Below are positions 1,245 through 12,834 of a DNA stretch of 13,693 bases, in pieces (the stretch's first letter is position 1; every line of letters begins with the position of its first letter). Under the pieces are notes generated by a model. That model was not told the DNA's origin. It made no database searches and saw nothing but the letters and a program-made list of their open reading frames with translations. Source of the DNA: a virus; UHGV virus genome UHGV-0482402; one strand, 5' to 3'. The position numbers and the translations under genes were made by a program.

Positions 1245-2558
1245 ATGGATAAAGTCAAATATCCAACAGGCGTCGAAAACCACGGCGGCACATTACGCAT
1301 CTGGTTTAATTTTAAAGGTAAACGTGTCAGGGAAAATCTTGGTGTCCCTGACACTGCCAAGAACAGGAAGATCGCCGGGGAACTGCGGACATCAGTATGT
1401 TTTGCCATCCGCACAGGAAGCTTTGATTATGCTGCACAGTTCCCTGACTCCCCCAACCTTCAGGCTTTTGGGGTAAGTAAAAAAGAAATTACGGTGAAGG
1501 AACTTGAAGAAAAGTGGCTGGATCTGAAACGAATGGAAATCTCTGCAAATGCATTCAATCGCTATGAATCCGTTGCAAGAACGATGGTTCCGAAAATTGG
1601 AGGCAGTAGACTGGTGTCATCGGTAACCAAAGAGGAATTGCTGTATATCAGGAAAGATTTGCTGACCGGGTATCAGAATTCAACGAAAAACAAAGCAGCA
1701 GCAAAAGGACGGAGCGTCGTTACTGTAAATTATTACATGACGACAATCGCTGGAATGTTTCAGTTTGCTGCAGATCACGGTTACTTAGAAGCAAATCCCT
1801 TCCAGGGAATTAAGCCTCTTAAAAGAGCCAGGGCAGAGCCAGATCCGCTAACTCGTGACGAATTTATTCGCCTGATAGATGCTTGCCGACATCAGCAGAC
1901 GAAAAACCTGTGGTCATTGGCTGTGTACACAGGAATGCGTCACGGTGAACTGGTCTCCCTGGCCTGGGAAGATATCGATCTGAAGGCAGGAACAATTACC
2001 ATCAGGCGCAATTATACGAAACTTGGTGAGTTCACTCTACCGAAAACTGAAGCAAGCACAAACAGGGTTGTGCACCTTATCCAGCCCGCTATCAGTGTCC
2101 TGAAAAATCAGGCTGAAATGACAAGACTGGGTAAGCAGTACAACATCAAGGTGCAACTACGTGAATATGGACGTTCAGTGAACCATGAATGTACTTTCGT
2201 GTTTAACCCTCAAGTGGTTAGAAAAAGCGAACAGGTAGGTTTTGTCTACAAAGTCGATTCTGTAGGTGACTCATGGGAAACAGCCATTAAGCGTGCAGGG
2301 ATCAGGCATCGAAAGGCATACCAGTCACGACACACTTATGCGTGCTGGTCATTATCTGCCGGAGCAAACCCAAGCTTCATTGCCAGCCAGATGGGCCATG
2401 CAAGTGCCCAGATGGTATTCAATGTATACGGAGCATGGATGACTGACAGCAATGCAGAACAGATCGCAATGCTGAATCAGAAGCTGACAGATTATGTCCC
2501 AATGATGCCCCATAGTCACCAAAGTGACACCAGAGGCTTATTAAAATCAGTAAGTTAA
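1245..2558 (+). CDS. int: tyrosine site-specific integrase (lambda Int family, with N-terminal arm-binding domain)
   Basis: 437 aa. The N-terminus (YPTGVENHGGTLRIWFNFKGKRVRENLG) looks like an arm-type DNA-binding domain. The C-terminus has the catalytic signature region ...RHRKAYQSRHTYACW...HASAQMVFNVYGAW (R, H-x-x-R and a C-terminal Tyr). GGAGGT lies 4 nt before the ATG. Confidence 0.9.
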   Translation: MDKVKYPTGVENHGGTLRIWFNFKGKRVRENLGVPDTAKNRKIAGELRTSVCFAIRTGSFDYAAQFPDSPNLQAFGVSKKEITVKELEEKWLDLKRMEISANAFNRYESVARTMVPKIGGSRLVSSVTKEELLYIRKDLLTGYQNSTKNKAAAKGRSVVTVNYYMTTIAGMFQFAADHGYLEANPFQGIKPLKRARAEPDPLTRDEFIRLIDACRHQQTKNLWSLAVYTGMRHGELVSLAWEDIDLKAGTITIRRNYTKLGEFTLPKTEASTNRVVHLIQPAISVLKNQAEMTRLGKQYNIKVQLREYGRSVNHECTFVFNPQVVRKSEQVGFVYKVDSVGDSWETAIKRAGIRHRKAYQSRHTYACWSLSAGANPSFIASQMGHASAQMVFNVYGAWMTDSNAEQIAMLNQKLTDYVPMMPHSHQSDTRGLLKSVS

Positions 2559-2763
2559 TCCTTAATACCCGTCATGTTAACTGCGTGATACGGAATTTTT
2601 AAAAATCACTAAAGAACGCCCAAGAGCATGTGTTTTCTTTAGAAGAATCAAAGCGTTGCATTGCCATGTCATATAAAAATCGGCAAAGTTCATATGTAAC
2701 AAAGTGTCCCAATCATGCCCCAAAATGCCCCACAACAAATATTTTTGCCCCATGCATGCCCCA
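2495..2763 (+). repeat. putative attP region: five direct copies of TGCCCCA, including an 18-bp near-perfect direct repeat (putative Int arm-type sites)
   Basis: TGTCCCAATGATGCCCCA at 2495-2512 (inside the int 3' end) and TGTCCCAATCATGCCCCA at 2705-2722 match at 17 of 18 positions. Further TGCCCCA copies sit at 2726-2732, 2746-2752 and 2757-2763, all in the same orientation. The location immediately 3' of int is where lambdoid attP sits. Confidence 0.4.
2646..2658 (+). promoter_or_regulatory. candidate IHF binding site within the putative attP
   Basis: AATCAAAGCGTTG matches the IHF core consensus WATCAANNNNTTR at every specified position. A chance match is possible. Confidence 0.3.
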
Positions 2764-2783
2764 AAAAATCACTTTCCCTCACC

Positions 2784-2835
2784 TTGACACTGTTTATCCA
2801 TACAGTTAAAAATAATACTGTATACAAACACAGTG
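2784..2835 (+). promoter_or_regulatory. dinI promoter with two tandem LexA (SOS) boxes
   Basis: Consensus -35 TTGACA at 2784-2789. LexA-type CTGT-N8-ACAG boxes at 2790-2805 (CTGTTTATCCATACAG) and 2818-2833 (CTGTATACAAACACAG). An A/T-rich -10 candidate lies at 2807-2816. The Shine-Dalgarno AGAGGGA is at 2836-2842 and the dinI ATG at 2849. Confidence 0.6.
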
Positions 2836-2848
2836 TAGAGGGACTTTT

Positions 2849-3097
2849 ATGCGTATTGAGATCTGCATAGCCAAAGAAAAAATGACTAAAATGCCAACCG
2901 GTGCTGTGGATGCGTTAAAGGAAGAATTAACTCGGCGCATCAGTAAGCGTTATGACGATGTAGAAGTGATCGTAAAAGCCACCAGCAATGATGGGCTTTC
3001 TGTTACACGCACAGCAGATAAGGATTCTGCAAAAACATTTGTTCAGGAGACTCTGAAAGATACCTGGGAGTCTGCTGACGAGTGGTTTGTTCACTAA
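2849..3097 (+). CDS. dinI: DinI-family protein (RecA co-protease modulator)
   Basis: The 82-aa translation [37 protein letters not shown]...[16 protein letters not shown] aligns along its length with E. coli DinI as recalled (MRIEVTIAK...ETWESADDWFVSE). LexA boxes lie upstream. Confidence 0.85.
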
Positions 3098-3165
3098 TAA
3101 ACACGTAAAATCGGTAACGGCTGGAAATCATTCAATACTCGCACTATCGAAAGTTAACCAGCCAA

Positions 3166-3203
3166 CCGCAGTATCCTGTCATGACAAGTTACTGCGGCTT
3201 TTT
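3166..3203 (+). terminator. rho-independent terminator downstream of dinI
   Basis: Inverted repeat CCGCAGTA (3166-3173) and TACTGCGG (3190-3197), followed by CTTTTTACTTTTT. Confidence 0.45.
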
Positions 3204-3214
3204 ACTTTTTATAT

Positions 3215-3502
3215 TTAACGGATCAACATCCAGATCAGCAGACACGCCACCACCGGCACAGCAAAATCCATCAGGCTTGCCACATCCCACGCGCGTGGAT
3301 CAAAACCGCCCCACCACGGCATGTTAATCCGCTTGCCATGCCCGAACATTTCAATCCAGCGATATTCTGCCTGGGTGTGTTCCCGCGCAATGAAGAACGT
3401 ACAACCGGCTATCGCACCGTAAGCCCAGTTTCCGGTAAAAAGACCACCCAGTACCTGTGCGACCACAGCGCAAAGTGCGTGATGAATTGGGGTTTTATCC
3501 AT
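3215..3502 (-). CDS. small integral membrane protein (95 aa), translationally coupled to the tailspike gene; function unknown
   Basis: ATG at 3502-3500 directly abuts the tailspike stop (minus strand reads TAG-ATG). Hydrophobic segments are AVVAQVLGGLFTGNWAYGAIAGCTFFIA and LMDFAVPVVACLLIWMLI. It sits where P22 and Sf6 carry O-antigen conversion genes, between tailspike and att. Confidence 0.6.
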   Translation of the reverse strand: MDKTPIHHALCAVVAQVLGGLFTGNWAYGAIAGCTFFIAREHTQAEYRWIEMFGHGKRINMPWWGGFDPRAWDVASLMDFAVPVVACLLIWMLIR

Positions 3503-6088
3503 CTACTCTATCTCTTTTGCTTTTTTAATTATCAATTCAAGCTCTGTTAAACGAGATTCAATACGTTCACACCTTCTTCGCTGGAATGCAGCCTCCAACC
3601 ACAAACATTCATCTGGACGCAATCCCCAACGCTCACCAGCATGTACAACCAGTTCCGTGTCACCAGTATCGTATTCTTCAAAGTATTCGTGAACGATGTC
3701 TTCTCCTTCAGGGGATTTAGCTATAAATGACACCTTGCGCTGTGCCATTACAGGTTGGTACTCATCATCCCATTTATCATGACATAGCAAGCCAAATCTT
3801 GTTCCATCTATCCCCTTTGCAAGAAACGCATCTCTTACCTGCTGTGCAATTGCTCCGAAATGCCAACGAGCAGTATCCGAACCTTTAGCCTTAATATCGG
3901 ACAACCACTGGTAAACGATAATATTTACGTCACCCCATGCGTCAAGAATTGCATCCTGATCCACCTCCATGATTTCTGAAAGTTGCTCTACTGTCAGTGG
4001 CTTTGTTTTCAATGTCTGGTCTGAAGTATTTATTGCCCCATTAGTTGCATATACTTGCGTCCACCGTTTAGATGATGTCCCACATGATGACGTATTATCT
4101 TTATTAGCACTTATATAGCCATTAACCTCCGCTGACTGACCGATATACGAATATGAAGATGTTGATAAGGGAGATTTAAATATCCATTGAGCATTGGTAA
4201 AGTCATAAATACCGGTATCACCTTTTTCACTAACATGAAAAGTTACATTCCGTAACGTATTCTTTGCATCATAACGGGCGGCTTGTGTTGTTGCCCTCGA
4301 AACAGTGAATCCTTTGTCATCAAGGTTTGCCTGCTCTATGACTTCACCACCAGGCATAATTTTACCAAGGCTTAACAAACCAGAGTTAGTGACAATATCA
4401 TGGGTTGAATCAATGATAATACCAGGCTGATTTCTTGATGTTGTTTTTACATGCATTACCTGTTGTGGCATTAATGTGTAAAATGTAGTTTCTCGCCCAC
4501 TATCACCATCTGGTATGCCATTTGTATTCCCCATTACAAGGTCATACCCACCTGCAATCATACGGAAAAACATTGCTTCTGGTTCATATGTAAGATTGCT
4601 AACATCTGGCGTTCCGGTATCATTTGGATCTGCTATTTCATAGGCTCTTCCTGCACCTGCCTGTATTTGCTGCACCCCAAGATAAACACCATCAAGTGTG
4701 TACTGATGCAAATATTTTCTGGTTGAAGAATATGCAGATCCAGCCTGACAAAAATAAATAGCAGTACCGTCACACGCAACTGTTTGCATATCCCTCACAA
4801 AATCGGCAATTTCAAATTCAAAAGTTGCTTCATTACGATAATCGTAATTGTACGCCTGCGGGTTAATAAATTTGCTGGTATCAAATACTTTTACATAATA
4901 GCGAATTTGATCTGGTGTTGATGGGCTCTCACCAGGGCCAACATAACGTTTTGCTGTAGTAATCAGCCATCGACTCATAGGGTCGGTGCATAAAACATTT
5001 ACCTGATTCTCGTAACCATCTTCCCATATGAGAAAAAACTCTGGTTCAATTTCACCACCATCAGTAGGGGTGAATCTGGTGATATACTTTGCGCGATCCT
5101 CTCCTTTAGCTGTGCCAGCTAACCCCCATATCTGTAACTGGCCTCTTGTGTTACGAAAACCAACGCGCCCTATGGTTAAACCAAGACATTGATGTCCTAA
5201 TTCTCTACTACCTTTAGTCTCCCAAAGAGGAGTTAACTCTTCATTCCCAAACCAATTATAAGCAACAACTTTATTAACTTCATCACCAGAACTAACGCTG
5301 CCACTCACATTTACCAAGCAATAAAGAACACTGTCATAATAATCAAGAACAGCACCCTGTATGACAGTATTTTTAATTGTTGCCAGTCGCAACCCTGACT
5401 TAACATGATTAGGAGTAGAAGGTCTGAAACCTGTATACATCCCCTTTTTTATAGTTTGTATTCTTTTTTCAGTAAAATCAGCATCTGGCAGTAATCGATT
5501 CTCTGTGCGAAAATAGCCATTTATATACTTATTTCCATCAAAAACTTGATCTGTTATATATGTATTACCCCTTAGATCAACAATCCTTCCTGTGATTTGT
5601 TTTTCTAACTCTTGAAAAGATAATGTGTCATCGGTGATGCCATCACCTTTTGCTCCCCATCCGCGAGGGTCAGCGTCATCACGCCACCGAGACATCTGCA
5701 ATTCATGATATTTTTTAGCACCTTCCGGGTCTTCTAATTGTTGTCTTAATTGGTCTGGATCGTACTTAAGCACATTCGGAAAATAGAACTGCTGCGTACC
5801 ATATGCATCGTAAACAGCCATAGAATGGCCTTGCACGGTAACGAATTTGGAAATCTGTCCGTTGTATACCGGGTATCCAGCAGCATTGATAACGATTGGC
5901 TGTGGCACCTGAACATAAGTACCATCTTCTCGTTCCAGATATACTGGAATCTGGTTTTCTGGATTTACCGGATCTGTGTCAATCTTACCGATATAAATTT
6001 TTCCATTTGCTACGGTTTTAAAAGAGCTAGCCATTGTGAAGAGTTGCGATGGCATACCTATCACAACATTTGGGGTTATATCAGGCAT
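3503..6088 (-). CDS. tailspike protein: P22 gp9-type head-binding domain, central pectate-lyase-type beta-helix (putative polysaccharide depolymerase) and C-terminal S74-type intramolecular chaperone
   Basis: The N-terminus [50 protein letters not shown]...[13 protein letters not shown]...NVLKYDPDQ matches the recalled P22 tailspike N-terminus (MTDITANVVV...[27 protein letters not shown]...[13 protein letters not shown]...NVLKYDPDQ). [13 protein letters not shown] beta-helix signature follows. The C-terminal roughly 173 aa begin at NTSDQTLK (Ser codon at 4022-4024) and end in a coiled coil. The start is placed at the ATG at 6088 (AGGA 8 nt upstream), not at the track start 6181. Confidence 0.9.
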
Positions 6089-6430
6089 ATTAGTCATCCT
6101 GTTTGAAGATTTAGATATTGAAGAAAACGGAATGACTGCAGACAACGATGCAATTGTTTTGAAAAATAACCTTCTATTCATTTAAAAACCATGCAACATG
6201 AACAAAACGATTATTTTACAATACTCAAGAATCTTGATCAACAGGCATATTATTTATGCGCTTAATGCGTCACTTACAAAAATAAAAACAAGTAATACCT
6301 TTATTCCTATCGTCCATGATTTTTATTTTCAAACATTATTAAATAACAATTCCTATTTATAATATCTGTCATTTAATTTGCTCCAGATACAAGTAATCGC
6401 TGCAGCGTGGCTACGGTGAATTTTGGGCAT

Positions 6431-6453
6431 AAAAAAACCCAGCCGAAGCTGGG
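6431..6453 (-). terminator. rho-independent terminator downstream of ant (between ant and tailspike)
   Basis: On the minus strand the hairpin CCCAGC-TTCG-GCTGGG is followed by a run of seven T (plus strand AAAAAAACCCAGCCGAAGCTGGG). P22 has a terminator at the equivalent position after ant. Confidence 0.6.
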
Positions 6454-6472
6454 TCGTTGCGTTGGTTATCTA

Positions 6473-7375
6473 TCAGTAGTTATGTACTGAAGGAGGTAAT
6501 TCTTTATTCTTAAGTCTCATCCATGCGGAAAGATTCGTTGGTCCATCTGGCTCATTGATATCAACATCTCGTGTGTGATTGATTAAAACGTCTCTCGCCA
6601 TTCCAATAACATACGAGAACTCATGACCGTAGTCGTAGCATCTGCCGGAATAGTTAGACTGAATTTGTTTTAGCGCCGGATACAGTTCGCGGAATAATGC
6701 CTGTGAGCGGTTGGCATAATCCCATAACCATACAAGGCTGTTTGCTTCTTTTGCAGAAAGCTCGTTGGTTTTCTTCTCTTGTTTGCCGATGAATTCGCCT
6801 TCAAGCACTACCCTGTGGATGTACTCTACGGCTTGCGGTATCTGAGACGCATCAAGCTCTTCAATACTTTCCACATTGAAACGCTGATGAATCATTGCAT
6901 AAGCTTCTGGGTACATTAGATGCTTTTTGCTGACCAGCATATTTACAGCATCACGAAGCGGAGTCCTGTCATCAACAGATGTTTTCTTACGTGCATTTTC
7001 TGCCTCTCCCTTTGTCCAGTAGTCATGCAGCACAGTAAAGCATTCTTCCTGGTACTGAATCAGTTTATCGCGGATGTCAGCACGAACTTTCTCAGGGTTG
7101 ATGCTGAACAGCCATCCATTTAACTTCTTCAAAGGAAGGCAGAGTAGCTTACGAAGCTTACCATCAGCGGCAACCATGTTCATATGAACACAGTTGAATT
7201 TGCTAATCTGCTTCATGAGTTTTGTTTGCTGCGTTGACCAGCTCATTCCAAGGTTTTCAACGATTGGCTTCATCGCAACATATGCAACTCCGGCAGCCAT
7301 GGCGGTGATAATTTGCTGACCGTTGAATGGTACGTAAGAGGTGTTCACTGCTTCTAAAATTGCTATACTATTCAT
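6473..7375 (-). CDS. ant: antirepressor Ant
   Basis: 300 aa from the ATG at 7375 ([29 protein letters not shown]...). GGAG lies upstream. It is immediately downstream of an Arc-like RHH gene and upstream of the tailspike, the same order as P22 arc-ant-gene 9. The track start at 7441 is a TTG that overlaps arc. Confidence 0.8.
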
Positions 7376-7447
7376 GTTGGTTTTTCTCCACGGATTTACT
7401 GACAACCGAAGCCCTGACTGTTCCCGCAGTTGGGGCTTCAACTTTTT
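7376..7447 (+). ncRNA. candidate sar-like antisense RNA covering the ant ribosome-binding site
   Basis: A plus-strand -10-like TATACT at 7364-7369 sits inside the first ant codons. A plus-strand intrinsic terminator follows: stem GAAGCCC (7408-7414) and GGGCTTC (7433-7439) with an inner ACTG/CAGT pairing, then AACTTTTT. The roughly 70-nt product would be antisense to the ant Shine-Dalgarno and start codon, like P22 sar. Confidence 0.4.
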
Positions 7448-7578
7448 AGGCTGCGAATAAGACGCTGCACTATTTCTGAATTTAAAGACCTGCCCTCCTC
7501 CTTAGCCTTTTCCTTCAATTTTTCTTTAATCTCTGGCGGGATACGAATCCCTAATGGAGCGATGTCTCTAACTTTCAT
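7438..7578 (-). CDS. arc: Arc-like ribbon-helix-helix repressor (46 aa)
   Basis: Minus-strand ORF missing from the track: [46 protein letters not shown]. It has the RHH signature (N-terminal beta-strand, then G-R-S-hNSEI) and lies directly upstream of ant. The Shine-Dalgarno is TGAGGGG. Confidence 0.7.
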
Positions 7579-7591
7579 TTCCCCTCACTTG

Positions 7592-7677
7592 CTACACCGT
7601 GATAACTAAATACTACACCGTGTTTATTTAAAGTCAAAATTTTTTTGCCTACACTGTGTAGCTATGCACAGCGTGCA
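7592..7677. promoter_or_regulatory. divergent immI control region with operator-like repeats
   Basis: CTACACCGTG occurs at 7592-7601 and again at 7613-7622. A perfect 13-bp palindrome CTACACTGTGTAG sits at 7649-7661 and a second, TGCACAGCGTGCA, at 7665-7677. All lie between the divergent arc (minus) and RHH-1 (plus) start codons. Confidence 0.45.
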
Positions 7678-7686
7678 GGAGGAGAA

Positions 7687-7926
7687 ATGAAAGGTGCAAG
7701 AGATATCAGTCCATTGGGGATTAGGATTCCAGACTATTTAAAGAAACGCATTCAGCAAGAAGCGGATAAAAACGGCAGATCAATGAACTCAGAGATCGTG
7801 CTTATCCTTCAAAAACATGTTGATAATCTTGATGGCTCTCGCTCACTTGAAGGATTCGCTAACCAAGAAGCTGATAAATTCAAAGAGGCGCTACTTGAGA
7901 CGCTAAAGACCATGTATGGTAAATAA
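7687..7926 (+). CDS. ribbon-helix-helix repressor, Mnt-like architecture (RHH plus C-terminal helical oligomerisation tail), paralogue 1
   Basis: ATG at 7687 follows GGAGGAG. Translation is MKGARDISPLGIRIPDYLKKRIQQEADKNGRSMNSEIVLILQKH...EADKFKEALLETLKTMYGK. The N-terminal strand (RDISPLGIRIP) is nearly identical to that of the divergent Arc-like protein ([11 protein letters not shown]). Confidence 0.7.
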   Translation: MKGARDISPLGIRIPDYLKKRIQQEADKNGRSMNSEIVLILQKHVDNLDGSRSLEGFANQEADKFKEALLETLKTMYGK

Positions 7927-7943
7927 TTATTCAGGATGTGCCG

Positions 7944-8201
7944 ATGTCTGATCGTAAGTACAAAAACCCTCAAGTGAATCTGAGGCTTCCTGTAGAGATA
8001 AAGGAACGTCTTATTGAACTGGCTGAGGCTAATTCTCGTTCATTAAATGCTGAGATGGTCGCGGCACTTGAAGCGTGGACAGAAAAAAATAAACACATTC
8101 AAGCACTAGACCTTGCAACTATAGCATCACGATTGATAGATCTTGAACATGATGTTGAGAAGTTGAAATGCATGTATAGCAACAATAAAGACGAAAGTTA
8201 G
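7944..8201 (+). CDS. ribbon-helix-helix repressor with Arc-type N-terminal strand and a C-terminal coiled-coil extension, paralogue 2
   Basis: ATG at 7944 is 7 nt after AGGA. Translation is MSDRKYKNPQVNLRLPVEIKERLIELAEANSRSLNAEMVAALEAW..., and its N-terminus resembles recalled P22 Arc (..PQFNLRWPREV..). Confidence 0.65.
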   Translation: MSDRKYKNPQVNLRLPVEIKERLIELAEANSRSLNAEMVAALEAWTEKNKHIQALDLATIASRLIDLEHDVEKLKCMYSNNKDES

Positions 8202-8224: not shown

Positions 8225-8479
8225 ATGGCTAGAGACGATCCGCACTTTAACTTCCGTATGCCTTTGGAAGTAAGAGAAAAATTGAAATTAAGAGCAGAGG
8301 CTAACGGAAGGTCAATGAACTCAGAGTTATTACAAATCGTTCAGGATGCGCTATCAAAACCATCACCGATTGCAGGCTATCGCGACGATGCTGAACGCTT
8401 GGCTGATCAGCAAGCAGAGCAGTTCAAGGCCGTTGTGTTTGAGACACTTAAAAAGATTTATGGCAAGGATGAAAAATAA
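8225..8479 (+). CDS. mnt: Mnt repressor orthologue (ribbon-helix-helix)
   Basis: MARDDPHFNFRMPLEVREKLKLRAEANGRSMNSELLQIVQDALSKPSP... is near-identical over the N-terminal half to recalled P22 Mnt (MARDDPHFNFRMPMEVREKLKFRAEANGRSMNSELLQIVQDALSKPSP...). GGAG lies 7 nt upstream. Confidence 0.85.
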   Translation: MARDDPHFNFRMPLEVREKLKLRAEANGRSMNSELLQIVQDALSKPSPIAGYRDDAERLADQQAEQFKAVVFETLKKIYGKDEK

Positions 8480-9015
8480 TGCTGCACACAATTCATTTCT
8501 TATGCCCCGTTAACACTGCCACTGTTGGGCAACTTCAGAACCACTGTCTCACCGCATTATCTCAAGGCGCAACTGAATTAAATATCCATATATCAAGTCA
8601 GGGAGGGGAAACTGCCGCTGGCTTTACTGCGTATAACTTTCTTAAGTCACTCCCTGTTACCGTTAGAACTCACAACATAAGCAATGTTGAATCCATAGCT
8701 AATATCGTTTTCCTGGCTGGCTCAGAACGTTTCGCAAACCCATTATCAAGATTCCTGTTACATCCTCTATTATGGTGCTTTGCCTCCCCAGCCGCCGACC
8801 ATGCCAGATTGAGAGAGTACGGGAAATGCCTCGATAACGATCTTGATCGCTTCGTTGAGACGTTCAATATCGACATCGGAACCCATATTAGGTGGGCATC
8901 CCTGATAGCAGACTCGACCATTTTGGATGCTAACAAGGCTCTTGAGCATGGCATAATTAATTCCATAAAAACTGCAAGGCTGGTATCCAATCAGGCAAAC
9001 TGGTGGGTTGTTTGA
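8479..9015 (+). CDS. ClpP-like serine peptidase (ClpP/crotonase fold), translationally coupled to mnt
   Basis: Its ATG overlaps the mnt stop (TAATG). LNIHISSQGGETAAGFTAYNF...NVESIANIVFLAGSERFANPLSRFLLHP lines up with recalled E. coli ClpP ([21 protein letters not shown]...[32 protein letters not shown]). Candidate triad residues are the Ser in ESIAN, the His in LLHP and a downstream Asp in IADSTILD. Confidence 0.65.
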   Translation: MLHTIHFLCPVNTATVGQLQNHCLTALSQGATELNIHISSQGGETAAGFTAYNFLKSLPVTVRTHNISNVESIANIVFLAGSERFANPLSRFLLHPLLWCFASPAADHARLREYGKCLDNDLDRFVETFNIDIGTHIRWASLIADSTILDANKALEHGIINSIKTARLVSNQANWWVV

Positions 9016-9788: not shown

Positions 9789-9810
9789 AGCCGGTTCACT
9801 CCGGCTTTTT
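9789..9810 (+). terminator. rho-independent terminator downstream of the YjzC-like gene (overlaps the last codons of the convergent HExxH gene)
   Basis: AGCCGG-TTCACT-CCGGCT followed by TTTT. Confidence 0.45.
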
Positions 9811-10161
9811 GATATGTCGTTCGCAGAACTCAACAAGCCTGCTCATTAAGTAGCAGTAAGTCTCGTTGGCTCTTCCTGGTTCAACATCAACACCGACCCT
9901 TGAGCAGATATCGAATGCCATGTGAGCGCACTCATGGGCAATAGTAGATAGTTTGCCATTGAACACGCCTATCACATGCAAAACACCATTCTCGCTGCTC
10001 ATTGTATGAGACGCTCCGTTGGCATCCGAGTCCTGCACGTCCACACCAAGTTTTTGATGCAGGCGTTGCCATTCTGGAAAGTCTCTACAAAACACAATTG
10101 TACCGCTCTCAAAGAGCGGTACGAGCATCTTTGGTACGTTTCCAATGTTAACTTTTTTCAT
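9796..10161 (-). CDS. minimal HExxH zinc-metallopeptidase-like protein (121 aa)
   Basis: HECAH motif within ...KLSTIAHECAHMAFDICSRVGVDVEPGRANETY..., with downstream Glu candidates for a third zinc ligand. AGGA lies 4-5 nt before the ATG at 10161. No transmembrane segment is evident. Confidence 0.55.
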   Translation of the reverse strand: MKKVNIGNVPKMLVPLFESGTIVFCRDFPEWQRLHQKLGVDVQDSDANGASHTMSSENGVLHVIGVFNGKLSTIAHECAHMAFDICSRVGVDVEPGRANETYCYLMSRLVEFCERHIKKPE

Positions 10162-10191
10162 GGTATCCTGCTCAAAACTAAGGAGGTTGGT

Positions 10192-10614
10192 GTGTTTGGC
10201 ATATTAACGAGAAGCAAGATAAAAAAATTAAGGGCGGAACTTGCCGAAACACAAAAATTAGCTTCACATTTTTACAAAATGAAACACGACGCTGAAGAGC
10301 GTGCATTCGTTGAGTTATGCGACCTATCTATTCGTATGGGGGTAGAGCCAGATGTAGCGGCAAAAACTCAAGAAGGCGTTAATATACTTGCAGATGTTGT
10401 TTTAAACAGACAATATGCGTTTTATCTAAACGAAAAAGCCATTCAAATTTACTCGCAAATTTTCCTCTTGGAAAAAAGGAGAGGAACTCGCGATAGAGAA
10501 GAGTGGCTAAATGAAGTTGTTAAAAAATCTGGCTGGGAAGTTGTTTCATCAGAGCTACCTTTTATTTGTGCTGATTTAATCGAAGAGGCAAAAGAGCGCC
10601 TATCCGATGGTTAG
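10192..10614 (+). CDS. hypothetical 140-aa protein, divergent from the HExxH gene
   Basis: Track ORF 9976-10614 trimmed to the GTG at 10192, which is 5 nt after a strong AAGGAGG (10180-10186); the earlier part overlaps the HExxH gene. The protein is a charged, helix-rich sequence with no family I recognise. Confidence 0.45.
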   Translation: MFGILTRSKIKKLRAELAETQKLASHFYKMKHDAEERAFVELCDLSIRMGVEPDVAAKTQEGVNILADVVLNRQYAFYLNEKAIQIYSQIFLLEKRRGTRDREEWLNEVVKKSGWEVVSSELPFICADLIEEAKERLSDG

Positions 10615-10646: not shown

Positions 10647-10712
10647 ATGGTAACAGTTGGTTGGATTATCGCGTTCCTTATTGCATTTTGGGTTGGTCGT
10701 CACTGGCTGTAG
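10647..10712 (+). CDS. possible 21-aa hydrophobic micro-protein downstream of the 140-aa gene
   Basis: ATG at 10647 is 6 nt after GGAG. Translation is MVTVGWIIAFLIAFWVGRHWL. It overlaps the 3' end of the convergent gp16-like gene, so it may be fortuitous. Confidence 0.2.
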   Translation: MVTVGWIIAFLIAFWVGRHWL

Positions 10713-12834
10713 TATCTTGCTGAGATAACCATGTGATAAACCCCGTGCGAGAAATGGTTTTTGCTTCATCTGTTGACAGGGTTTTCTCCCATATCTTAAA
10801 TGCATTAGATCGCATCAGCTTCCTTTCTATTACGCGTCTCACTTCTGCTCTGTCTACTGGTGCGTTTTGCAGGCGAAATAGCATTAATTTAAACTCAGGA
10901 GAAGACAGTAGAGCATCAGCAGCCTTTATCCTGCTTGTTTTCCCTGACATCAATGCAGCCGATATTACCCCTGAAGCACCTGCTCCCAAAAGGCCAAATG
11001 AGCTTGTAATTCCTTCCGCCGCAGCAGCTTTTGAGACTATTCCATAAATTTTTGCGAGACTACCCTTTTCTTTCAGAAAGTTATTAACTTGCTGATCCAC
11101 AAGGCTACTAGCATACTGCTTACCAGTATTGAGTCTATTCATAGCCTTAGCTGCTTGATAAATCGTATCAAGGCGCTTTGATGCATCTGTGCCAATAGCA
11201 TCACGGAGAGCCTTCATATTGGCCCCATTGCGTGACATTCCGTTATACCATTTTACAAATCCATCAACTCCTAATTGCTGACCAGGTGATTTGGCATAGC
11301 TGGTAAATGCTTTATTCATTGAGGTGAGCGCAACTTCCTGCCGCATATCCTTTGGAATTGACTTCATTAATTGCCTAAAGTCACCACCGTTTCCTTTTGC
11401 CATATTAACAACGGCACTTTCAACTTTTGGAATTGCTGATTGCTGAAGTTTTCTACCCAAGACGGTTACAGCATCATCTTCAATGGATTTTCGTTTTTTT
11501 ACCAACTCCTTACCAAGCGTCCATAATTCCCCTGCACCATATTTTTCTGCGACAGCCTGTTGGTCATCTGTTATGGCTGCATATAACTTTTTAAGAACAC
11601 CTGTTTCTTCATCCTTGAATGGGCCAGAGCCTTTGCCAATAGCTTGTCCAACCTGCTTTCTAGCGAGATCTAAACGCCCATACGTTGGCAAGGTGTTTGG
11701 ATCAAGTCGGTTCAATGTCCGCTTCATTATTGGAGATAATTCATCAATTCCACCTATGTCATCAGCAAAATCCTCTAAAAAATTCAATGTATTAGTTGCC
11801 TCAATCCGGTCTCTTACAGGTACCTTTTCGGCAATTTTGTTGTAGATGTTATCTGACTGATTTTGTAATGATGAAATGGTTTTATCAAAATTATCTGCAA
11901 GCCTGTCAGAAACCAGTTGCTTATCAAGGTTTCCCCCAAATGAAGTTATCATTTCATCAGCTTTTCTTCCTAATTCAGTAATAAAACGCTTATGCGCCTC
12001 ACTAATCTCTGTTCCAGGGAGACTTGCCACTGCATTATCAAGAGCCCTGACAGCAGGATTATTAGAGATCATGCCTGGAGTGGCATAATTTTCCAGTTCT
12101 AGCTCACGAATAGCATTTATCGCGTTAAAATCAGGATTAACTTCATCGGCGAAATCTTGAATAGCTCGTTGCCCACCAATAAATTTATTATCCATTGCGC
12201 CAGCAGCTTTCTTTAACGTTGCTTTAGATGATTTACTACCCATCCCTACGGATGAGCGATAAATATCTCCGGCACTATTTTTAATTTTTCCTGCAATCTT
12301 CCCAAGCGCTGGACCAACAATCTCGGCTACAGGGCCAGCCACAGCGCCAATAGCAGCGCCGGAAGCAACATCGCTATTTGTTCCATTGGCTACAATAGCC
12401 CCTTCTCCAGCACCAAGCCCTGCGGCGGCAGCCAGCCTTGCCGCCCCTTTCGGAACCTGAGAAATAATCCCACCACCACTAACAAATGGTGCTGCTTGTC
12501 CAACGAACTCACCAACATCTTGTGCGGTTGATGGTTTTGCCGCTAACTTCTGCTGTAGAGACTGAATTGCGGCTTGCTCTTCTGGTGTCATGTCCTGAAA
12601 CAGGCCAACACCTTTACCAACATCCATCAATCCACTGAGAACGCCATACATAAAACGGTCGAAACCGTTAGCATTATTAACAACATTTTCCTGTCTGGAA
12701 TTTTCCTCTGGTGAAACCAAAGGAGATTGCTGCTGTTCTGGTTGGGAATCAAGCACAAAGCCATCAGGAAGCTGTGAGTTATCAGGCTGATTATCGAGAA
12801 CAAAGCCTTCGGGTAAACCTACATCGGTTGCCAT
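10678..12834 (-). CDS. virion ejection/injection protein (P22 gp16-like by position)
   Basis: 718 aa with Gly/Ala-rich segments (AAAGLGAGEGAIVANG..., GAAIGAVAGPVAEIVGPALG). Its start overlaps the upstream gene's 3' end by 16 nt. It lies directly upstream of the immI region, as in the P22 order 20-16-sieA-mnt. Confidence 0.65.
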   Translation of the reverse strand: MATDVGLPEGFVLDNQPDNSQLPDGFVLDSQPEQQQSPLVSPEENSRQENVVNNANGFDRFMYGVLSGLMDVGKGVGLFQDMTPEEQAAIQSLQQKLAAKPSTAQDVGEFVGQAAPFVSGGGIISQVPKGAARLAAAAGLGAGEGAIVANGTNSDVASGAAIGAVAGPVAEIVGPALGKIAGKIKNSAGDIYRSSVGMGSKSSKATLKKAAGAMDNKFIGGQRAIQDFADEVNPDFNAINAIRELELENYATPGMISNNPAVRALDNAVASLPGTEISEAHKRFITELGRKADEMITSFGGNLDKQLVSDRLADNFDKTISSLQNQSDNIYNKIAEKVPVRDRIEATNTLNFLEDFADDIGGIDELSPIMKRTLNRLDPNTLPTYGRLDLARKQVGQAIGKGSGPFKDEETGVLKKLYAAITDDQQAVAEKYGAGELWTLGKELVKKRKSIEDDAVTVLGRKLQQSAIPKVESAVVNMAKGNGGDFRQLMKSIPKDMRQEVALTSMNKAFTSYAKSPGQQLGVDGFVKWYNGMSRNGANMKALRDAIGTDASKRLDTIYQAAKAMNRLNTGKQYASSLVDQQVNNFLKEKGSLAKIYGIVSKAAAAEGITSSFGLLGAGASGVISAALMSGKTSRIKAADALLSSPEFKLMLFRLQNAPVDRAEVRRVIERKLMRSNAFKIWEKTLSTDEAKTISRTGFITWLSQQDTTASDDQPKMQ

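Follow-up and report, generated by a model that had tools for sequence, protein, structure and literature searches.

Gene content around ant

The window, by which we mean the whole 13,693-nt stretch of viral DNA analyzed here (genome UHGV-0482402), is part of a P22-like (Lederbergvirus-type) phage or prophage of Escherichia coli. Integrase and excisionase genes occupy approximately positions 1-2600. They are followed on the minus strand by a tailspike gene (3503-6181), whose 892-amino-acid (aa) product combines the head-binding domain of P22 gp9 (residues 32-144) with a C-terminal Peptidase_S74 intramolecular chaperone domain. Since the head-binding domain begins at residue 32, the true start codon of this gene may lie downstream of the first ATG. 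The endosialidase N-terminal extension is matched too, though weakly and below threshold. On the far side of the region of interest, a gene for an ejection (DNA transfer) protein is located at 10678-12834 on the minus strand.

Next to the tailspike gene lies ant (6473-7375, minus strand), which encodes a 300-aa antirepressor with both P22 antirepressor domains, PF10547 (P22_AR_N, 4e-45) and PF10548 (P22_AR_C, 5.8e-30). Its Shine-Dalgarno sequence, GGAG (7386-7389, minus strand), is located 10 nt upstream of the ATG, and P22 record X01916 annotates a ribosome-binding site at the equivalent position. Upstream of ant, and first in the arc-ant operon, is a gene for a 46-aa Arc-like ribbon-helix-helix repressor (7438-7578, minus strand; Pfam Arc, 5.2e-13). 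The arc stop codon occupies 7438-7440, which leaves an intercistronic gap at 7376-7437. This arc is a different allele from the arc genes of P22 and epsilon34, and given that difference, regulation of the arc-ant transcript from Pant, the target of the antisense RNA described below, may differ from that in P22.

Divergent from arc are three tandem Arc/Mnt-type ribbon-helix-helix genes on the plus strand, at 7687-7926 (79 aa), 7945-8201 (about 85 aa), and 8225-8479 (84 aa); the third has a Pfam Mnt C-terminal domain. The locus thus contains a P22-type Ant, an Arc-family gene upstream of it, and divergent Arc/Mnt-family genes, one of them with the Mnt C-terminal domain, which makes it an immunity I (immI) module. 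The same arrangement has been described as the “ant moron” or immunity I region of P22 and epsilon34, to which sar also belongs (PMC2629481).

The intergenic region between arc and the mnt-like genes (7579-7686) holds the sole sigma-70-like promoter call in 6900-8000, TTGACT-16 nt-TAGTAT at 7610-7637 on the minus strand. By analogy with P22, this candidate Pant would produce the arc-ant mRNA with which sar pairs. A repeat search also found three copies of CTACACYGTG(T), starting at 7592, 7613, and 7649 (span, 7592-7661). The second copy overlaps the candidate Pant, and the copy at 7649 lies in the palindrome CTACACTGTGTAG. The copies are unlike the annotated Oarc and Omnt operators of P22, and they are candidate operators, probably of an immI specificity that differs from that of P22.

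Two further features of the region concern genes beyond the repressors. The third ribbon-helix-helix gene overlaps by 1 nt a plus-strand gene for a 178-aa ClpP-like protein (8479-9015; Pfam CLP_protease, 44 bits). We are not aware of any role described for a ClpP-like gene that stands alone in an immunity I region, in the same orientation as mnt. The protein matches the “Clp protease” of PDB entry 9uxt (E value, 1.8e-35); that entry is a ClpP paralogue of Pseudomonas plecoglossicida and is uninformative as a clue to a role in the phage. A plus-strand open reading frame (ORF) of 212 aa (9976-10614), located between the immI region and the gene for the ejection protein, occupies the place of sieA in P22. 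It has no Pfam or PHROG match. A 121-aa ORF that overlaps it from the opposite strand (9796-10161) matches phrog_1365; either may be the real gene.

The antisense RNA and its promoter

An earlier sequence-only reading of this DNA had proposed a sar-like antisense RNA of about 70 nt on the plus strand, complementary to the ant ribosome-binding site and of the same arrangement and size class as P22 sar. Our results agree with this proposal and allow a firmer identification. Positions 7376-7443 of the plus strand match the Rfam sar family (RF00262) at 95.6 bits (E value, 6.6e-20; the gathering score is 43) over model positions 1-68 of 68, with no truncation, and this is the sole Rfam match anywhere in the window. 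Moreover, Salmonella phage epsilon34 matches 7300-7445 at 100% identity. This segment comprises the promoter, all of the RNA as far as the T-run, and the first part of ant; in the epsilon34 record, it bears annotations for Psar and a “sar small antisense regulatory RNA,” equivalent to 7341-7369 and 7377-7444 of the window. Transfer of the curated features of P22-pbi and P22virB-3 gives a base-for-base fit, with Psar at 7341-7369, the sar RNA at 7376-7445, and its terminator, t-sar, at 7408-7445. The Rfam match, these annotations, and the predicted fold thus agree on an RNA of 68 to 70 nt at 7376-7445, which may reach 7447 on the longer T-run found here.

Considering these matches, we put at roughly 93% the probability that 7376-7445 encodes the sar RNA of a P22-type immunity I region, controlling ant. 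The element is sar proper rather than just a sar-like sequence. It is also already known, in that the identical sequence is annotated in epsilon34. sar itself has been known since 1987, and its identification here carries little weight as a discovery and is useful mainly as annotation. What the annotation adds is that, at the sequence level, a P22-like element of E. coli carries the whole circuit by which immunity I controls the antirepressor (Pant, arc, sar, and ant); it also illustrates that a cis-antisense RNA can be recognized by a reader from the raw letters.

The RNA lies antiparallel to the operon in the arc-ant gap. The start of the sar model at 7376 adjoins the ant ATG (7375-7373, minus strand), and the Shine-Dalgarno sequence is wholly covered. 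It had been suggested that the RNA extends across the ant translation start. On this point the proposal needs correction: the predicted RNA ends at position -1 of the ant ATG, so that it covers the Shine-Dalgarno sequence but not the start codon, and only the promoter part of the sar unit sits within ant.

For the predicted 72-nt transcript (7376-7447), the fold consists of two hairpins, with a free energy of -29.4 kcal/mol and a z score of -5.3; none of 200 shuffled sequences folded as well. This minimum free energy (MFE) structure is the Rfam consensus, two stem-loops of which the second is a predicted Rho-independent terminator. Hairpin I (7376-7403), found both in the MFE fold and in the Rfam consensus, has a 6-bp outer stem (GUUGGU/ACUGAC), and its apical part bears the anti-Shine-Dalgarno sequence CUCC at 7386-7389. 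Hairpin II (7408-7439), the stem of t-sar called by the terminator scan, has 14 bp, including three G-U pairs, and the loop UCCC. It is followed, after AAC, by the T-run TTTTT (7443-7447), which is templated by the last arc codons. The sequence-only reading was right about a plus-strand hairpin with a T-run in this place, but these are not wholly intercistronic: arc extends over the final 2 bp of the stem and all of the T-run, which occupy its stop codon and its last two codons (L-K-S-stop).

The promoter lies at the other end of the unit. A -35-like hexamer, GTGTTC (7341-7346, plus strand), taken from the Psar annotations of epsilon34 and P22-pbi, is located 17 nt upstream of the -10 element. 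The latter had been noticed as a TATACT in the first ant codons; it is indeed present at 7364-7369 of the plus strand, in ant codons 3 and 4. Read directly from the sequence, it forms part of an extended -10, TGcTATACT (7361-7369), in ant codons 3-5 (Ser-Ile-Ala, with ATA as the Ile codon). The -10 is identical to those of P22 and of the annotated Psar of epsilon34, and the predicted start of sar, 6 to 7 nt past it, adjoins the ant ATG. In contrast, GTGTTC is a weak match to TTGACA and differs by one base from the P22 hexamer, GTGTTA, being that much further from the consensus.

A generic sigma-70 scan gave no call at Psar, because the -35 is weak. We did not take this miss as evidence against the promoter, since Psar has been mapped in P22 and relies on an extended -10. 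Nor does the -10 motif by itself exceed chance in the window (3 matches, with 2.98 expected); hence, the motif alone proves nothing, and its position and conservation carry the argument. Judged by its sequence, then, this is a Psar placed in the first codons of ant and directed against Pant.

Every sequence part of the P22 circuit is present and intact, and a mechanism can be proposed on that model. RNA polymerase would start at Psar, with its weak -35 and an extended -10 buried in ant codons 3-5, and would move away from ant, against the arc-ant mRNA, until the 14-bp hairpin and the U-run halted it where arc ends. This would yield an RNA of about 70 nt that matches, with perfect complementarity, all of the arc-ant intercistronic leader between position -1 of the ant AUG and the arc stop codon, GGAG included. 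By pairing with this leader, sar would block ribosome binding and lower the amount of antirepressor made from Pant transcripts, which would help the phage to establish lysogeny. For the present phage, it is by analogy with P22 that we infer that transcription starts at Psar, where exactly the RNA begins and ends, and that Ant is repressed.

Conservation of sar and a mosaic joint

The immI regions of 13 further phage records were retrieved; the host genera are Salmonella, Escherichia, Cronobacter, Edwardsiella, and Erwinia, and some of the phages are lambda-like siphoviruses. The window and one sar region from each of 12 distinct sequences were aligned with MAFFT. Across these 13 sequences, mean pairwise identity is 0.90 in the extended -10 and 0.83 in hairpin II, whereas it ranges from 0.46 to 0.55 in the adjacent ant codons (0.50), hairpin I, and the tail. 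Conservation thus peaks in two islands, the extended -10 and hairpin II. The TG of the -35 hexamer is conserved as well, with an invariant G and a T in at least 90% of the sequences, and 4 nt separate the -10 from the ant ATG in 13/13.

All relatives share the same two-hairpin fold. In hairpin II, 98.9% of the alignment cells are paired, and three pairs have changed on both sides. Hairpin I appears only 63% paired on the MAFFT alignment, a value that we discounted, as its 3' arm is shifted by one column in the PhiR12-type sequences. When the sequences are folded singly, its stem forms in all 13, despite arms as different as GUUGGU/ACUGAC, GUCAAUA/UGUUGAU, GUCGU/ACGAU, and GUCGGU/ACUGGC.

The Rfam sar threshold is passed by 10 of the 13 related loci (48 to 98 bits). 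Those of SEN22 and GF-2 score 32 bits, under the threshold, and the Midgardsormr38 locus gave no Rfam sar match. In the coordinates of the retrieved regions, the sar-like loci in question are located at 437-503 in SEN22, 423-482 in Edwardsiella phage GF-2, and about 437-505 in Erwinia phage Midgardsormr38. All three have a conserved -10 of the TTGCTATACT type at 4 nt from the ant ATG, and all three have two hairpins and a tail rich in T. Since loci with the same architecture fall below the threshold or escape the model, the real sar family is wider than RF00262 now captures.

The homology of the window to epsilon34 and P22 ends abruptly at 7445. To the left of this point, 6360-7445, which comprises ant and sar, has 98.3% DNA identity to epsilon34. 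To the right, the relationship is with another lineage: 7352-8177 has 96.9% identity to the immI cassette that E. coli MS 196-1 carries in a lambda-like prophage and about 94% identity to phage PhiR12_1. Only the segment from the Psar -10 to the end of sar is common to the two parental types. Within this overlap, hairpin I of the window is identical to that of epsilon34 and unlike that of PhiR12_1; the joint is therefore probably located in the terminator half of sar. In phage Emek, a 36-bp segment, 7405-7440 of the window (hairpin II and a few flanking bases), forms a 100% identical island whose flanks do not align.

No one record in the phage collection or among 5,426 complete E. coli genomes spans 7445 at high identity on both sides. 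The individual pieces are common, since 442 of the 5,426 genomes match part of 7300-7700. In the lambda-like siphoviruses and prophages, the entire cassette of ant-sar-arc, two ribbon-helix-helix genes, and the ClpP-like gene is inserted between tail genes L and K (1602-3614 in PhiR12_1 and 2058-4338 in MS 196-1, in coordinates of the retrieved regions); hence, the antirepressor module under sar control moves as a unit from one phage type to another.

That the conserved segment of sar coincides with the mosaic joint between two immI lineages is the only mildly new point of this analysis. We offer, as a tentative idea that we think is more probably wrong than right, that the near-invariant 3' half of sar, made up of hairpin II and its tail, has functions beyond termination: it would serve as a recombination linker for arc/mnt and ant alleles and allow cross-talk between the sar RNAs and ant leaders of co-resident prophages. 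If so, the sar RNAs of a P22-like and a lambda-like prophage would pair with each other's ant leaders, and the variable hairpin I would set the specificity.

Alternative readings and comparison with known systems

Three other scenarios may account for the conserved elements at the locus. The hairpin, which sits right at the arc stop codon, could be a mere terminator or attenuator of minus-strand arc transcripts, or a bidirectional terminator, with no plus-strand RNA made; the sequence-only reading had itself raised the possibility that it serves arc transcripts alone. The complementary strand does form a hairpin there, at -16.0 kcal/mol. Yet the terminator scan calls hairpin II on the plus strand only, where it folds by itself at -21.9 kcal/mol (z score, -5.8), and hairpin I shows the same asymmetry (-4.3 kcal/mol on the plus strand versus -0.8 on the minus strand, where it is essentially unfolded). 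The plus-strand fold is the stronger one because of the G-U pairs of sar, in place of which the minus-strand copy of hairpin II has A-C mismatches. This interrupted stem is followed by GGUUGUCAGUAAAUCC (also given as GGUUGUCAG), without a U-run, so that Pant transcripts should read through into ant. The ant ribosome-binding site stays unstructured on this strand. Furthermore, the Pant of P22 is annotated as transcribing both arc and ant, with no separate promoter annotated for ant; efficient termination at this point would therefore silence the downstream gene. A role in termination alone also leaves unexplained why a conserved extended -10 is found at a fixed distance from the ant ATG. Given its weaker and interrupted stem and the missing U-run, we rejected the minus-strand terminator, and a hairpin that acts without any plus-strand RNA is highly unlikely.

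It is very unlikely, too, that sar was inherited but is now a silent relic, with a Psar too weak to act or in a decaying prophage. Such a view could appeal to the -35, weaker than that of P22, and to the mosaic window, which was not found whole in the phage collection or the 5,426 complete E. coli genomes. Against it, promoter and RNA are identical to those of a viable temperate phage, epsilon34; ant (300 aa, with both domains) and arc are intact; the T-run exceeds that of P22 in length; and divergent relatives conserve both the -10 and the terminator. As for a coding function, the mechanical ORF list includes a 40-aa ORF with an ATG start (7327-7449, plus strand) that spans the interval, and a small protein might be encoded instead of a regulatory RNA. 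We rejected this ORF and give a protein-coding role next to no credence. The Psar start is downstream of its ATG (7327), a codon missing in P22, which has AACGGC for AATGGT; no in-frame start codon follows the mapped 5' end, and there is no Shine-Dalgarno sequence. In addition, single-base indels in both hairpin loops of the relatives would break the frame, and conservation tracks stems rather than codons. A sar RNA directed against ant thus remains our preferred reading.

Among the closest known systems is sar of P22 (RF00262; mnt-arc-sar-ant), where a transcript of 68 to 69 nt is made and represses Ant translation (PMC12197685, PMC7968456); in small-RNA sequencing, sar reads are found only in P22-infected cells (PMC13397905). 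The two elements share position, strand, size, -10, and spacing to the ant ATG. Both have two hairpins with an anti-Shine-Dalgarno sequence and a P22-type Ant as target, and 66 of 68 bases are identical. The two substitutions, at 7391 and 7423, fall in loops, with C in the window and A in P22. Other differences are seen at the arc end. The arc product has 46 aa in the window and 53 in P22; stop codon and terminator stem share 2 nt in the window, while the P22 stop codon is found about 6 nt past the stem; and the T-run has five T's in the window compared with three in P22 and epsilon34. Both the longer U-run and the 2-nt overlap are due to the new arc allele.

Epsilon34 (EU570103; misc_RNA “sar” and Psar), identical to the window in promoter and RNA, has P22-like arc, operators, and mnt, whereas the window has another arc/mnt allele and extra ribbon-helix-helix genes. 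Variants of sar also occur in immI cassettes of lambda-like E. coli prophages and of P22-like E. coli phages. Those of PhiR12_1, the E. coli MS 196-1 prophage, Kapi1, and EC.P3 have the extended -10, hairpin II, and a T-rich tail in common with the window, and the three of them that were scanned (PhiR12_1, Kapi1, and EC.P3) pass the Rfam sar threshold at 64 to 72 bits. PhiR12_1 and MS 196-1 also carry the arc allele of the window, but their cassette is flanked by siphovirus tail genes, while that of the window is next to the tailspike gene. In these four, hairpin I has the arms GUCAAUA/UGUUGAU; it still pairs and fits a different ant leader and Ant N terminus.

A functional parallel outside the family is the c4 RNA of P1 and P7. 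Like sar, it is a small RNA that pairs around a ribosome-binding site, blocks translation of an antirepressor operon, and aids immunity (PMC12197685). The two are unrelated in sequence, and the sar family alone was matched here. They also differ in how they arise and act: c4 is processed from its target's own transcript and pairs through short complementary loops, whereas sar is a convergent, fully complementary cis-antisense RNA.
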